From: an archaeon
GTDB taxonomy: Archaea > EX4484-52 > B79-G9
Direction: 5' to 3'
Assembly: GCA_043813875.1 (NCBI GenBank)
Contig: JBDRKP010000065.1
Span: forward strand, 1-12,509
DNA: 12,509 bases
The stretch's first letter is position 1, and each line of letters begins with the position of its first letter. A program made the position numbers. This document shows, one piece after another, positions 3,001 through 6,000 of this stretch.

Positions 3001-6000
3001 CAGACCTTGCTGTTGAAGATCACCACATGATAGAGGATGTGGCTATCGTGCTTGCGGAGGCGCTTCTTAAGGCTACGGGAGAACGGAAAGGCATAAACAG
3101 GATAGGCTATTCGATACTTCCTATGGATGATGCGGTCGTCATGGTGTCGATTGATCTTTCGAGGTCGTATTTCCAGCAGAGGGGCATCGCATTTTCGAAA
3201 GAGAAGTTCGGGAGCCTGTCTACTGAGAATATAGCGCCTTTTTTTGAGAGTCTTGCGCTCAATGCGAAGATGACGCTTTATATGAACAAGATTGAGGGAA
3301 CAAATGACCACCACATCGCTGAGGCGTGCTTCAAGGCGCTCGGATGCGCGCTCAAGATGGCGGTAGCGAAGGATGAAAGAATGCGTGATGCGCTGAGCAC
3401 GAAGGGTGTCTTATGATGGTATCTGCCAAAAAATCGGTTTTAGGGATGAAGGAATATGTCCCACCAACGGCCAAGAGAAGAGGTATGCTTAGGCTTGACT
3501 TCAATGAGAATACGCGGGGGTGTTCGCCTAAGGTACTTGCCGCGCTCAAGGAGATCAAGGCAGATGATGTGTCCATATATCCGGATTACTCGGGTGTCTC
3601 CAAGATGATCGCCGGATATGTCGGGAACGGGATTGTGAGTGAACAGACAATGATCACAAACGGGAGCGATGAGGCAATCAAGTGTATCATGGATACTTAT
3701 GTCGAGTGCGGGGATGAGGTCGTGATGGCTGTGCCGACGTTTGACATATTCAGGGTGTATGCGACTGTCGCAGGGGCAAAGATTGTCGGTGTGCCTTATG
3801 GTGATGATATGGAGTTCCCGCTGGATGAGGTAGTATCTTCCATCAATGAGAGGACTAAGGTGGTGGTGATTGTGAATCCGAACAATCCTACCGGAACTGC
3901 CGTATCGAGGGAGGGGATACTGAAGGTCGTGAAGAAGGCAAAGGATTCTGTTGTCCTTATCGATGAGGCATATCTAGAGTATTACGGGGAGACGTGCGCT
4001 GATCTTGTCGCTATTTATGACAATGTATTTGTCATACGGACATTCTCCAAGGCGTTCGGGCTTGCGGGGCTAAGGATCGGGTATGTCCTGTCGGATGAGC
4101 GCAATATCGCATCACTGCTCAAGGTGAGGTCGCCTTACAGCATAGGGGCGGATGCGTGCATAGCGGTGGGTGCTGCGCTTGATGATGTTGATTTTGTCAG
4201 GGATTATGCGCGCGAGGTCAAAAAGAGCAGGAAGATGCTTTTTTTGGGGCTTTCCAGGCTCGGCGTCAAATGTTATCCGTCGTCTGCCAATTTTGTGCTT
4301 GCGGATTTCGGAAAGGATGCGGATTATGTGTGGAAGGAGCTTTTTTTGAATAACATCCTTACAAGAAGGTGGCCAATGAATGAGAGGCTCAAGAATTGTA
4401 TCAGGATAGGGGCAGGAACTTCTGAGGAGGCGGAGAAGGTGCTTTTGATTGTTGAGGCAGCGCTTTCTAAAAAGGAGGCGTTCATATTTGATGTAGACGG
4501 AGTGCTTGTCGACGTGTCCGGGTCTTACAGGCGGGCGGTGAAGGAGACGTGCGAGTTTTTCCTCAAAAGCGAGGTCACGGCGGATGAGATACAGAAGGTG
4601 AAGAATTCGGGCGGGTGCAATAATGACTGGGATCTTTCTATGAAAATCATCTCTCTGCGATGGAAAAATGTTCTGCGCGAGAATATAGTGTCAAAGTTCC
4701 AGGAGCTTTACATGAAGTACAGAAAGGATGAGAGATGGCTGATTTCACGGGATGTGATCGACGGGCTATCAAAGAGGTACAGGCTTGGAATCTTTAGCGG
4801 GAGGCCTCGAGAGGAATTGATTTTTGCTCTCCGTGAGTCCGGGATGGAGAAGTATTTCAATGCTGTCGTTGCCATGGAGGATGTGCCTGTGTCCAAGGGG
4901 AAGCCTGAGCCTTTCGGGTTGAAGCTTGCGCTTCGGATGCTCGGGTGCTCGAAGGGGTTCTATGCAGGGGATACTGTCGATGATGTCATGGCTGCAAAGG
5001 GCGCAGGGCTTGTGGCTGTCGGCGTGCTTGCCCCGCTGGACAAGTCGGATGAACTGAAAGGTATGCTGGTCTCTTTCGGGGCGGATTTTGTGGTGGATGA
5101 TGTCAATGACGTGTTAAACATTAATGGGGCGGTTTAGATGGAAGTATGCGTCGTTGATTACGGAGGAGGGAATGTCAGGAGCCTGTGCAATGCGCTTGAG
5201 TTTCTGGGCGCGGAGTATATATTGAGCGATGATGCGGAATATGTGCGCAATTCGGGCGTGCTTATGCTCCCGGGTGTCGGGAGTTTCGGTGCAGTCATGA
5301 ATGGCCTTGTGAAGAAGGGGCTTGATTCGGCTGTTGTCGATGCGATCGGGGCGGGGGCGAGGTTTTTTGGGATCTGCGTCGGTATGCAGGTGCTTTTCTT
5401 TGGGAGCGATGAGAGCCCGGGGGTCCCGGGGCTTTCGGTGATTGATGGAGATGTGGTCAGGTTCAACCGGGGGAAGGTGCCGCAGATCGGATGGAATACC
5501 ATCAGGACTTTGAATGAGGGTGTTTTTTTGGACGGGTATGTTTATTTTGTGAATTCATATTATTGCGTGCCGAGGGATATGGGGGTTGCCGCGTGCTTAA
5601 CGGAGTATGGGGGATTGAATTTCTGTAGCGCTTTGAGGCGCGGGAATGTCTATGCGACGCAGTTCCACCCGGAAAAGAGCGGATGGCTCGGGCTTGAGAT
5701 CATCAGGAGGTGGCTTTATGATCGCTAAGAGGATCGTGCCGTGCCTTGATATGAAGGACGGGAAGGTCGTGAAGGGAGTAGGTTTTGATAATCTTCGGGA
5801 TGCCGGGGATCCTGTAGTGCTTGCGCGGAAGTATTATGAAGACGGGGCAGATGAGATTGTCTTTCTTGATATCAGCGCGTCTACTGATAAAAGGGATATC
5901 CTGATCGATGTAGTTTCCAGGACGGCTTCTGAGATATTCATACCATTCACTGTCGGGGGAGGGGTGAGGAGCGTCTCTGACATTTCACGGATACTTGCGA

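Follow-up and report, generated by a model that had tools for sequence, protein, structure and literature searches.

A HisC-fused HAD domain as the predicted histidinol-phosphate phosphatase of an archaeal his operon

To our knowledge, histidinol-phosphate phosphatase (HolPase) is the only step of histidine synthesis that has no universal enzyme. The window analysed here, which is the whole 12,509-nucleotide stretch of contig JBDRKP010000065.1 from an archaeon (assembly GCA_043813875.1), carries a his operon in which HisB is a dehydratase only. Which gene, then, supplies the phosphatase? An earlier note on this DNA proposed a HAD domain that is fused to HisC. This proposal is supported by the fusion partners of the domain, its operon position, the fingerprint of its cap, and its anti-correlation with canonical HolPases. 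We put the probability at about 85% that the fusion protein (P0001) serves histidine biosynthesis with two activities, HisC and HolPase, with histidinol phosphate as its presumed substrate. If so, the gene would therefore supply the step that is missing from the dehydratase-only HisB.

The his operon and the fusion gene

The genes are tightly packed in the order hisG-D-B-[C-HAD]-H-F-A/IE-hisS. Pfam and NCBIfam matches on each gene bear out this order, as it had been given in the earlier note, and the reading of HisB as a dehydratase alone. The neighbours of the fusion gene are as follows:

705..1547, plus strand: long-form hisG, which includes the C-terminal regulatory domain (PF01634 and PF08029; TIGR00070, 158 bits)
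1552..2838, plus strand: hisD (TIGR00069, 526 bits)
2835..3416, plus strand: hisB, imidazoleglycerol-phosphate dehydratase only, 193 aa (PF00475, residues 30-173)
5138..5728, plus strand: hisH (TIGR01855, 172.5 bits)
5646..6482, plus strand: hisF (TIGR00735, 353.6 bits)
6528..7799, plus strand: hisA-hisI-hisE triple fusion, 423 aa (PF00977 1-219, PF01502 252-324, PF01503 338-420)
7777..9087, plus strand: hisS, histidyl-tRNA synthetase with anticodon-binding domain (TIGR00442, 368.9 bits; PF03129)

The HisB of the window has no phosphatase domain, and it matches the bifunctional HisB model NF003937 at positions 169-355 only. The hisB stop and the start of the fusion gene overlap by 4 nt, and hisH starts at the base directly after the fusion-gene stop codon. 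Because the TIGR00735 match opens at residue 25, the true start of hisF is probably further downstream than 5646. In addition, the G+C content of the his region (50.1%) exceeds that of the genome (43.8%), so the contig may have been acquired or mis-binned. Arguments from the rest of the genome are therefore weaker, and those based on the operon are unaffected.

The fusion gene (3413..5137, plus strand) is a single ORF of 574 aa with an uninterrupted, stop-free frame. This ORF and its Pfam and NCBIfam matches agree with the earlier description of a HisC with a C-terminal HAD-IA domain: Aminotran_1_2 matches residues 25-343 (E 2e-51), HAD_2 (PF13419) residues 358-538 (E 6.3e-17), Hydrolase (PF00702) residues 355-532, and Hydrolase_like residues 496-566. 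Residues 7-348 pass the cut-off of the hisC model TIGR01141 (284.8 against 276.55 bits), and the top matches of this half in a PDB sequence search were HisC chains (E 3.7e-42). S212 and K213 were invariant across 48 fused homologues, and we take K213 to be the PLP-binding lysine. An identity as CobD (threonine-phosphate decarboxylase) was rejected for this half, as TIGR01140, whose cut-off is 290.55, reached only 174.3 bits; the TIGR01141 result and the his operon setting also counter it.

There is almost no linker between HisC (residues 1-350) and the HAD-IA domain (residues 351-574). In the AF2 model of full-length P0001 (pLDDT 93.2, pTM 0.87), the final HisC helix (337-352) passes straight into the first HAD strand (355-359). 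None of the 50 PDB chains listed at E<=1e-10 in a sequence search with whole P0001 spans both domains. The features of the fusion gene are given below; A2 is the alignment of the 48 fused homologues.

3413..4462, plus strand: HisC domain, residues 1-350 (TIGR01141, PDB matches, last HisC helix of the AF2 model)
4046..4060, plus strand: HisC PLP-lysine motif S212-K213-A-F-G (S212 and K213 invariant in A2)
4463..5137, plus strand: HAD-IA phosphatase domain, residues 351-574, and stop; predicted HolPase (TIGR01548 as best family, AF2, cap fingerprint)
4487..4501, plus strand: HAD motif I, F359-D360-V-D362-G363 (D360, D362 and G363 invariant in A2 and a further alignment, A1)
4526..4627, plus strand: cap segment with the predicted HolPase fingerprint Y372, R373, V376, I393, K397, D405 (alignment, cap-only profile)
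4796..4810, plus strand: HAD motif II region, S462-G-R464-P-R (R464 invariant in A2, position 462 T in at least 90%)
4895..4912, plus strand: HAD motif III, K495-G-K497-P498-E-P (K497 and P498 invariant in A2)
4967..4984, plus strand: HAD motif IV, G519-D520-T-V-D523-D524 (G519, D520 and D524 invariant in A2)

The HAD domain and its relation to nmHisN

The best NCBIfam family of the C-terminal domain (224 aa) is TIGR01548 (124.7 bits, E 3.3e-36; next family 60.6 bits), and the match covers positions 2-196 of 197. Thus, the family named in the earlier note is confirmed as the best one. However, the note omitted that the score lies under the curated cut-off of 140.2, both for the domain and for whole P0001 (121.2 bits). 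Because of this shortfall, the domain is TIGR01548-like and not a formal member; members of the same fingerprint group from Haloferax, Bathyarchaeota and Rhodothermales pass the cut-off. The weak match to TIGR01656 was reproduced (22.9 bits, E 6.4e-5, cut-off 84.15). TIGR01548 itself (HAD-SF-IA-hyp1, a "hypothetical equivalog") is a model without a function name. Nevertheless, "function-unknown", as the note called the family, does not hold for this type, since its clade contains nmHisN (Nmar_1556) of Nitrosopumilus maritimus and toHisN, two HolPases proven in vitro.

All four HAD catalytic motifs are present in P0001 (FDVDG at 359, SGRPR at 462, KGKPEP at 495 with K497, and GDTVDD at 519), and they are invariant or at least 90% conserved in the 48 fused homologues. 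In the AF2 model of the domain (pLDDT 94.0), cap helices 22-34, 40-48, 55-65 and 72-89 (domain numbering) lie between strand 5-9 and the core. By this model, the domain is of subfamily IA, with an all-helical C1 cap directly after motif I. A structure search of the PDB returned generic HAD-IA matches only (3kbb, 2hsz, beta-phosphoglucomutases), with 6iah ranked 41st; these matches do not tell substrates apart. In the sequence search, 6iah was the best match (E 2.1e-11). Its record title gives phosphatase Tt82 of Thermococcus thioreducens, which makes Tt82 the closest solved relative by sequence.

Kinateder 2024 (PMC10804674) describes nmHisN, whose gene lies between hisC and hisB, as a HAD protein and a specific HolPase in vitro, which rejected PLP, phosphoserine and seven other esters. 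Its fingerprint, obtained by alanine scan, is Y24, D25, K56 and E64 plus I28 and I52, and the D25A exchange lowered kcat/KM about 220-fold. The study also ties nmHisN to toHisN, a HolPase assayed earlier, which carries Y-D-R-D. In our alignment, Y372, R373, V376, I393, K397 and D405 of P0001 correspond to Y24, D25, I28, I52, K56 and E64 of nmHisN. Y372 stands 12 residues past the nucleophile, as does the tyrosine of the Nitrososphaeria proteins; K397 and D405, 8 residues apart, give the basic and acidic positions with the spacing of nmHisN; and V376 and I393 are the hydrophobic residues. At the D25 site, P0001 has an arginine, R373.

In this comparison, Nitrososphaeria proteins of the same operon position served as stand-ins for Nmar_1556. 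At four such loci (L073, L078, L083, L085), a HAD gene of 316-345 aa lies between hisC and hisB, with the fingerprint Y-D/N-I-I-R-D. The best NCBIfam family of these proteins is likewise TIGR01548 (49.7-70.7 bits). Furthermore, a cap-only profile without motif I scored 31.9-37.2 bits on the four proteins versus at most 5.0 on 24 generic HAD-IA loci. On this sequence evidence, the HAD domain of the window belongs to the nmHisN/toHisN clade. P0001 and nmHisN have in common the HAD-IA core, in which one helical cap follows motif I. However, nmHisN is monomeric and unfused, and its cap is larger, with nine helices, whereas the domain of P0001, about 220 aa long and joined to HisC, has a shorter one. 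Tt82 and toHisN (TON_0887, Thermococcus onnurineus) are also free-standing and have Asp, not Arg, behind the tyrosine; Tt82 (S-Y-D ... R-R-K-G-S-F-G-D-D at the fingerprint places; fingerprint Y-D-R-D) has a smaller cap and is probably the orthologue of toHisN.

Arginine at the D25 site is common: 142 of the 183 fused homologues have it, as do 136 of the 162 free ones; the other fingerprint sites of the 183 fused proteins hold Y in 176, K/R in 178 and D in 179. PMC10804674 reports this arginine in "cluster II" and in Euryarchaeota and delta-proteobacterial homologues, and predicts HolPase function there, graded as "likely" and less certain. R373 matches P0001 to this cluster II type. It should be noted that the assayed clade members, nmHisN and toHisN, carry Asp at this site, and the branch of P0001 carries Arg.

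In a tree of 98 HAD domains (two rows labelled as fused by length, L050 and L074, are no HisC fusions), the window domain clustered (SH-aLRT 99) with fusions from the same genus and with DPANN-like ones, and the fused/free state switched at least 5 times. The deep forks are weak, and when the tree is rooted on the Nitrososphaeria rows, generic HADs fall among the other rows. Therefore, the tree speaks neither for nor against a common origin of the Nitrososphaeria proteins and the window domain.

With residue roles carried over from nmHisN, the following course may be proposed. The N-terminal HisC, with PLP on K213, would convert imidazole-acetol phosphate to L-histidinol phosphate by transamination, and the C-terminal HAD-IA domain would hydrolyse this product to L-histidinol. 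The hydrolysis would follow the usual HAD course and depend on Mg2+: D360 would form the phospho-aspartyl intermediate, D362 would act as acid/base, S462 and K497 would hold the phosphate, and D520/D524 the metal. In the helical C1 cap, Y372, K397 and D405 would select the substrate, with packing by V376 and I393.

Two other HAD-type HolPases can be compared. E. coli HisB (HisNB, HolPase/IGP dehydratase) is a precedent, as it likewise joins a HAD-superfamily HolPase to a His enzyme. However, its phosphatase is of another subfamily (IIIA-like, GmhB-related), and its partner IGPD catalyses a non-adjacent step, whereas HisC catalyses the step immediately before. The other, paHisN of Pseudomonas aeruginosa (PA0335), was recognised late after another annotation; it carries a pair of small cap inserts, its fingerprint is D16-D18-Y47, and its evolution is judged independent in PMC10804674.

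Distribution of the fusion and alternative explanations

The earlier count of 68 other proteins at E<=1e-10 proved too low: an exhaustive search gave 851 cluster representatives, 152 of them at E<=1e-30. Among the best 150 representatives of a length-unbiased search, 94 have a His enzyme in the same chain (89 hisC-HAD, 2 hisG-hisC-HAD, 2 hisC-HAD-hisB, and 1 HAD-hisIE), and the remaining 56 are free-standing. A length-restricted set adds hisD-HAD-hisB (the eukaryote Amorphochlora) and HAD-hisB. Over both sets, the partners are HisC, HisG, IGPD, HisD and HisIE. Current names of members are "histidinol-phosphate transaminase", "aminotransferase class I/II-fold..." and "TIGR01548 family HAD-type hydrolase".

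In Nitrososphaeria, the relatives of nmHisN, and in Acidobacteriota, hisC and hisB flank the free HAD gene. The fingerprint is found at 56 of 80 named genome loci, of which 11 are hisC-fused and 29 have a same-strand his neighbour, giving a his context for 40/56; the 24 loci without the fingerprint (generic HAD) have none (0/24). The other 16 fingerprint loci stand without his neighbours. Meanwhile, 4 of 41 same-order genomes have a full his operon, and the fusion is present in all 4; relatives G005, G020 and G031 share it. In G025 and G027, a lone hisD has no further his gene within the stretch examined, and because it stands alone they are unfit as controls for an operon without the fusion.

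A canonical HolPase was counted when a protein scored above the curated cut-off of TIGR01856 (PHP), TIGR02067 (IMPase-type) or TIGR01261 (HisB-N), in hisD-bearing genomes only. Such a protein occurs in 5/30 carrier genomes versus 11/16 non-carriers, and in the 5 carriers it is of the PHP type. In the genome of the window (1.64 Mb, 91.5% complete), profile searches found neither a hisJ-type PHP HolPase nor the HisB-N domain (TIGR01261). The PHP protein that the earlier note held capable of the step exists as one match, but this spans only positions 1-66 of 164. The two IMPase-like genes of the note are present and score 177.6 and 67.9 bits; the HisN cut-off is 275.

The stronger of these genes, on contig C77, could do or share the HolPase step. 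An alternative would be that it does so, and that the HAD domain acts on a different phosphate ester (a sugar phosphate, phosphoserine or PLP, for example). Among NCBIfam families, the C77 protein indeed matches HisN best (about 178 bits), IMPase-type HolPases are well established (PMC5516325), HAD-IA enzymes readily shift substrate, and the structure search gave generic HAD matches only. However, we consider this explanation improbable. The C77 protein is far under the cut-off, SuhB and FBPase/IMPase models score nearly equally, and its neighbours are MgtC and TldD, with no his genes there. Relatives G005 and G020 (87% and 84% complete) have the same fusion and operon and no IMPase-like match at E<=0.001. 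Furthermore, IMPase-like proteins 38-40% identical to true HisN can be phosphoserine phosphatases, according to GapMind 2026 (PMC13759103). The alternative also leaves unexplained the fusion to five different His enzymes and the cap fingerprint shared with nmHisN, which rejects PLP, phosphoserine and seven other esters (PMC10804674).

It is still less probable, and in our view very unlikely, that the HAD domain is a catalytically silent, ligand-binding or structural appendage of HisC, which for example senses or holds histidinol phosphate. Fused domains in general sometimes lose activity, and Arg replaces the fingerprint Asp here. Nevertheless, the catalytic residues D360, D362, S462, K497, D520 and D524 are intact and invariant or nearly so among the 48 fused homologues, and free copies with the same fingerprint fill the same operon slot. 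Finally, an assembly or gene-calling artefact that reads hisC and a HAD gene as one has a negligible chance, for although the two are separate neighbours in many genomes, e.g. of Acidobacteriota and Nitrososphaeria, the frame here is unbroken and stop-free, the architecture of about 575 aa recurs in G005, G020 and G031 and, across independent assemblies, in 89 of the 150 closest cluster representatives, and the AF2 helix-to-strand junction is continuous at high confidence.

Meaning for the missing HolPase

The preferred reading is thus a HisC-HolPase. The HAD phosphatase type is already known, having been shown in archaea in 2024; the fusion and its breadth are new. Within the searchable open literature, PMC5516325 and PMC8305728 included, no description of a HisC-HAD fusion was found. 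The fusions provide independent evidence for histidinol-making by the large Arg-type branch, which was called only "likely" in 2024.

The earlier note cited GapMind 2026 for hisN missing in 42 genomes, 20% of prototrophs, and the paper (PMC13759103) bears this figure out, with 42 of 208 prototrophs. In its main text, the 2024 nmHisN work is uncited, with 0 occurrences of "Kinateder". GapMind 2020 described Synpcc7942_1763, a Synechococcus elongatus gene listed as a candidate for histidinol phosphatase, as dispensable for growth; this would count against the preferred reading if the gene were the TIGR01548 member of that genome.

A wider joint reading is tentative, and as a whole we would sooner doubt it than accept it: the rigidly joined HisC-HolPase would pass histidinol phosphate from site to site, and in many lineages the "missing" HolPase would chiefly be a member of the fingerprint TIGR01548 clade, whether fused or free, so that this clade would fill a sizeable share of the hisN gaps of GapMind 2026. 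These lineages would be Acidobacteriota, Melainabacteria, Myxococcota, Planctomycetota, Aminicenantes, Rhodothermota, DPANN archaea, Bathyarchaeia and haloarchaea. If an assay bears out the function, new names could be given to hundreds of protein clusters, predictions of auxotrophy would improve for many uncultured lineages, and a natural enzyme uniting two consecutive steps would be open to study.

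The histidine operon and its fused gene

The window holds a compact his operon on the + strand, in the order hisG-hisD-hisB-[574-aa gene]-hisH-hisF-hisA-hisI-hisE fusion-hisS. The features are as follows.

361-708, +, ORF of 115 aa, immediately 5′ of hisG and overlapping its start
705-1547, +, hisG
1552-2838, +, hisD
2835-3416, +, hisB (193 aa; matches the dehydratase half alone of the bifunctional HisB model)
3413-5137, +, HisC-HAD fusion gene (574 aa; its product is P0001)
5138-5728, +, hisH
about 5646-6482, +, hisF
6528-7799, +, hisA-hisI-hisE fusion (one 423-aa gene)
7777-9087, +, hisS
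9092-10069, −, XerA/integron-type tyrosine recombinase, 3′ of hisS
10223-11569, −, GmrSD_N + HNH protein, 3′ of hisS

The hisB stop and the start of the fusion gene overlap by 4 nt, and hisH starts at the first base past the fusion gene stop. The 115-aa ORF had no match in Pfam and NCBIfam. In addition, the hisA-hisIE fusion was also found in two relatives (G005 and G020) and at loci L010, L022, L031, and L032, where it adjoins HisC-HAD or free HAD genes.

Residues 7-348 of P0001 matched the HisC model TIGR01141 (284.8 bits, cut-off 276.55), and the HAD part matched Pfam HAD_2 (358-538) and Hydrolase (355-532). For the last 224 residues, the top NCBIfam family was TIGR01548 (124.7 bits, E 3.3e-36), with a runner-up at 60.6 bits; the E. 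coli-type model TIGR01656 gave 22.9 bits. The fusion of HisC and HAD within the his operon is therefore as the earlier note described it, although the note did not mention that the score is under the TIGR01548 cut-off (140.2). AF2 models were confident for the HAD domain (pLDDT 94.0, pTM 0.89) and for the whole protein, modelled from 48 fused homologues (pLDDT 93.2, pTM 0.87). In the latter, the final helix of HisC (337-352) is followed by the opening strand of HAD (355-359). No low-confidence linker separates them, and thus the model suggests that the two domains are held in a fixed arrangement. A PDB sequence search with P0001 found no chain spanning both domains among the 50 listed at E ≤ 1e-10.

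The G+C content of the his region (705-9087) was 50.1%, versus 43.8% for the genome (contigs >5 kb: mean 43.8%, s.d. 1.6%, n = 78). This higher value may reflect horizontal acquisition or mis-binning of the his contig. Meanwhile, 9092-11569 had 29-32% G+C, versus about 50% in the operon, and resembles a mobile or defence island bordering the operon.

Membership of the nmHisN/toHisN clade

Kinateder et al. (2024; PMC10804674) described Nmar_1556 (nmHisN) of Nitrosopumilus maritimus, a HAD protein whose gene lies between hisC and hisB. The purified protein showed specific histidinol-phosphate phosphatase (HolPase) activity (kcat 0.79 s−1, KM 73 µM) and was inactive on nine other esters, PLP and phosphoserine among them, and the authors linked it with toHisN, described earlier from Thermococcus. 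Their alanine scan gave a cap fingerprint of Y24, D25, K56, and E64 plus I28 and I52, which is Y-D-R-D in toHisN. Furthermore, Arg replaces D25 in one Euryarchaeota and two delta-proteobacterial clusters of their similarity network, and these clusters were graded as likely but less certain HolPases. The main text of that paper does not mention a HisC fusion; "hisC" occurs there twice, both times for the Nmar operon. The TIGR01548-like family had been taken as one of unknown function, and this should be corrected, because the same clade holds nmHisN, a HolPase assayed in vitro (PMC10804674).

A scan of species-representative genomes found 233 relatives, and the best 80 of the 233 were taken with organism names. 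Nitrososphaeria proteins at the published operon position stood in for the sequence of Nmar_1556 itself. Four such loci (L073, L078, L083, and L085) have a HAD gene of 316-345 aa in the order hisG-hisD-hisC-[HAD]-hisB-hisH-hisA-hisF, a slot that equals the published Nmar_1556 position, and their sequences read ...FDIDGVL.D..KSY[D/N]..I...[K/R]..GGFNND... All sequences were aligned to a profile of the P0001 HAD domain and 24 free-standing relatives. The six fingerprint columns were Y-D/N-I-I-R-D in Nitrososphaeria versus Y372-R373-V376-I393-K397-D405 in P0001. The spacing was equal in the two, with the acidic residue eight positions from the basic one and the Tyr twelve past the nucleophile.

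A cap-only profile (domain positions 18-66, motif I excluded) gave 31.9-37.2 bits for the four Nitrososphaeria proteins and 35.9-57.9 bits for nine long-cap relatives (Haloferax, Desulfobacterales, and others). For 24 generic HAD-IA loci of the same scan it gave at most 5.0 bits, and 7 of them had no match. The top NCBIfam family of the Nitrososphaeria proteins was also TIGR01548 (49.7-70.7 bits); a Haloferax member scored 223.6 bits. The closest PDB sequence match of the domain was 6iah (E 2.1e-11, "Phosphatase Tt82 from Thermococcus thioreducens"), which has the pattern Y-D ... R ... D at the positions aligned to the P0001 fingerprint.

Fingerprint counts were made over all the fused proteins of at least 500 aa (n = 183) and free proteins under 300 aa (n = 162) gathered by then. 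The fused proteins had Y in 176, K/R in 178, and D in 179, with the D25 site occupied by Arg in 142 and by Asp in 5. Among the free proteins, Y was found in 153, K/R in 160, and D in 160, and 136 had Arg at the D25 site. The P0001 fingerprint is that of the Arg type. The HAD domain can thus be assigned on sequence to the nmHisN/toHisN clade, near but under the TIGR01548 cut-off, and does not constitute a novel HolPase type.

Fusion partners, his context, and canonical HolPases

An exhaustive domain search among cluster representatives found 4963 at E ≤ 1e-3, 851 at E ≤ 1e-10, and 152 at E ≤ 1e-30. The best 150 of the 4963, labelled by match to the window's own His proteins, comprised 89 hisC-HAD, 2 hisG-hisC-HAD, 2 hisC-HAD-hisB, 1 HAD-hisIE, and 56 HAD alone. 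A second search, skewed to fusions because it was restricted to proteins of 315-1005 aa, gave 115 matches: 104 hisC-HAD (including P0001), 5 hisG-hisC-HAD, 1 hisC-HAD-hisB, 1 HAD-hisB, 1 hisD-HAD-hisB, and 3 HAD alone. The hisD-HAD-hisB protein is eukaryotic (P0108, 718 aa, partial; named from the chlorarachniophyte Amorphochlora amoebiformis) and carries this HAD domain between hisD and hisB in a single chain. The named sources of the fused proteins were Aenigmarchaeota, Nanoarchaeota, Euryarchaeota, Calditrichia, Gastranaerophilales, Aminicenantes, Terriglobales, Planctomycetota, Myxococcota, and Deltaproteobacteria, and the nearest named fusion came from an Aenigmarchaeota MAG. Their names were only "histidinol-phosphate transaminase", "aminotransferase class I/II-fold...", and "TIGR01548 family HAD-type hydrolase".

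Among the best 80 of 233 loci, 56 were fingerprint-positive (Y/F, K/R, D/E): 11 were fused to hisC, 29 adjoined a same-strand his gene (mostly Acidobacteriota, hisIE-G-D-C-[HAD]-B-H-F-A), and 16 had no his neighbour. None of the 24 fingerprint-negative loci had his context. At L050:6004-8022 (Spirochaetes MAG), outside his context, a 672-aa protein has a long-cap fingerprint-positive HAD (Y-K-I-L-K-D) as its N-terminal half and a C-terminal part of about 340 aa.

To compare with canonical HolPases, we examined the genomes of 30 of the 56 positive and 20 of the 24 negative loci (leaving out L065 and L079, in Nitrososphaeria genomes, and L074 and L084). The models were hisD, TIGR01856 (PHP), TIGR02067 (IMPase-type), and TIGR01261 (HisB-N), with TIGR01548 in the 20 controls. 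One control, the Methanosarcinales MAG G087, was moved to the carriers because it carries hisG-[hisC-HAD]-hisB-hisIE-hisD. Genomes with no hisD match (carrier G057; controls G081, G084, and G086) were dropped. A canonical HolPase over the curated cut-off was found in 5 of 30 carriers (G043, G060, G062, G063, and G087; all PHP-type) versus 11 of 16 non-carriers (7 PHP, 2 IMPase-type, one of them also PHP, and 3 HisB-N). The Fisher's exact p was 0.0008, a value that is too favourable given the non-independence of the genomes (10 carriers are Acidobacteriota). With G050 (locus L019), which is marked as unpublished, removed, the carriers were 5 of 29 (p 0.001).

In G087 (L102:3039-4745), the fusion operon occurs with a PHP-type HolPase at 135.4 bits, over cut-off. 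The two also occur together in the Bryobacterales/Terriglobia genomes G060, G062, and G063, whose HAD copies group in a single clade, with Phe for the fingerprint Tyr in two of them. For these four double carriers the alternatives are redundancy of the step and drift of the HAD copy.

TIGR01548 was over cut-off in 2 of 14 named control genomes, and those matching at E ≤ 1e-12 were only Bacillus subtilis, Synechococcus elongatus, and Haloferax volcanii. GapMind 2020 lists hisN of S. elongatus as an unsolved gap. Del Duca et al. 2021 (PMC8305728) report finding no HolPase candidate in Rhodothermota, a gap that this family may fill: a Rhodothermales MAG chromosome has a free fingerprint-positive HAD over cut-off (L025:5989-6708, 142.2 bits). 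The same genome has an IMPase-like gene under cut-off (241 bits).

The step in the archaeon and its meaning

The window's genome (1.64 Mb, 90 contigs, 91.5% complete; relatives 0.5-2.2 Mb) is one of 4 of 41 same-order genomes with a strong TIGR01548 match (102-137 bits). In all four (the other three being the congener G005, G020, and G031) it lies in a 574-582 aa frame within the his operon. The organism is probably a DPANN-like archaeon, as indicated by the Aenigmarchaeota source of the nearest named fusion and by the XerA-type recombinase in the window. Ten of the 41 gave a hisD match, as contig-end pieces in four (G004, G006, G007, and G021) and solitary in G025 and G027, with no further his gene in the stretch examined. 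Within the genus, the search found the full operon with the fusion only in G005 of 7 other genomes, and 3 others have hisD contig-end fragments only.

An IMPase-like enzyme could be considered for the step. One such gene, flanked by MgtC and TldD genes, scored 178 bits for HisN (cut-off 275), 156.8 for SuhB, and 144 for FBPase/IMPase. The second looks like FBPase/IMPase, and the PHP match is limited to the first 66 model positions. Neither G005 (87% complete) nor G020 (84%) had an IMPase-like match at E ≤ 0.001, a HisB-N match, or a PHP match over cut-off.

Thus, the proposal of the earlier note that the fused HAD is the pathway HolPase is supported by the clade fingerprint, the fusions to His enzymes, the his context, and the complementarity, and we consider it very probable (about 0.85). 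Its weak points are the one altered fingerprint residue, the sub-threshold IMPase-like gene, the carriers that also have a PHP-type enzyme, the GapMind 2020 entry giving the S. elongatus candidate Synpcc7942_1763 as dispensable for growth, and the G+C content of the his region.

hisN is the commonest gap in GapMind 2026 (42 of 208 genomes; PMC13759103). "Kinateder" is absent from its main text, and thus its reference set may still lack the nmHisN family. In the literature searched, what is new is the HisC-HolPase architecture, together with its predominance in close relatives and its wide distribution, which takes in many archaeal and bacterial phyla. P0001 joins the HAD domain to the enzyme producing its predicted substrate, and fusions of this type give independent support for the HolPase function of the Arg-type branch.
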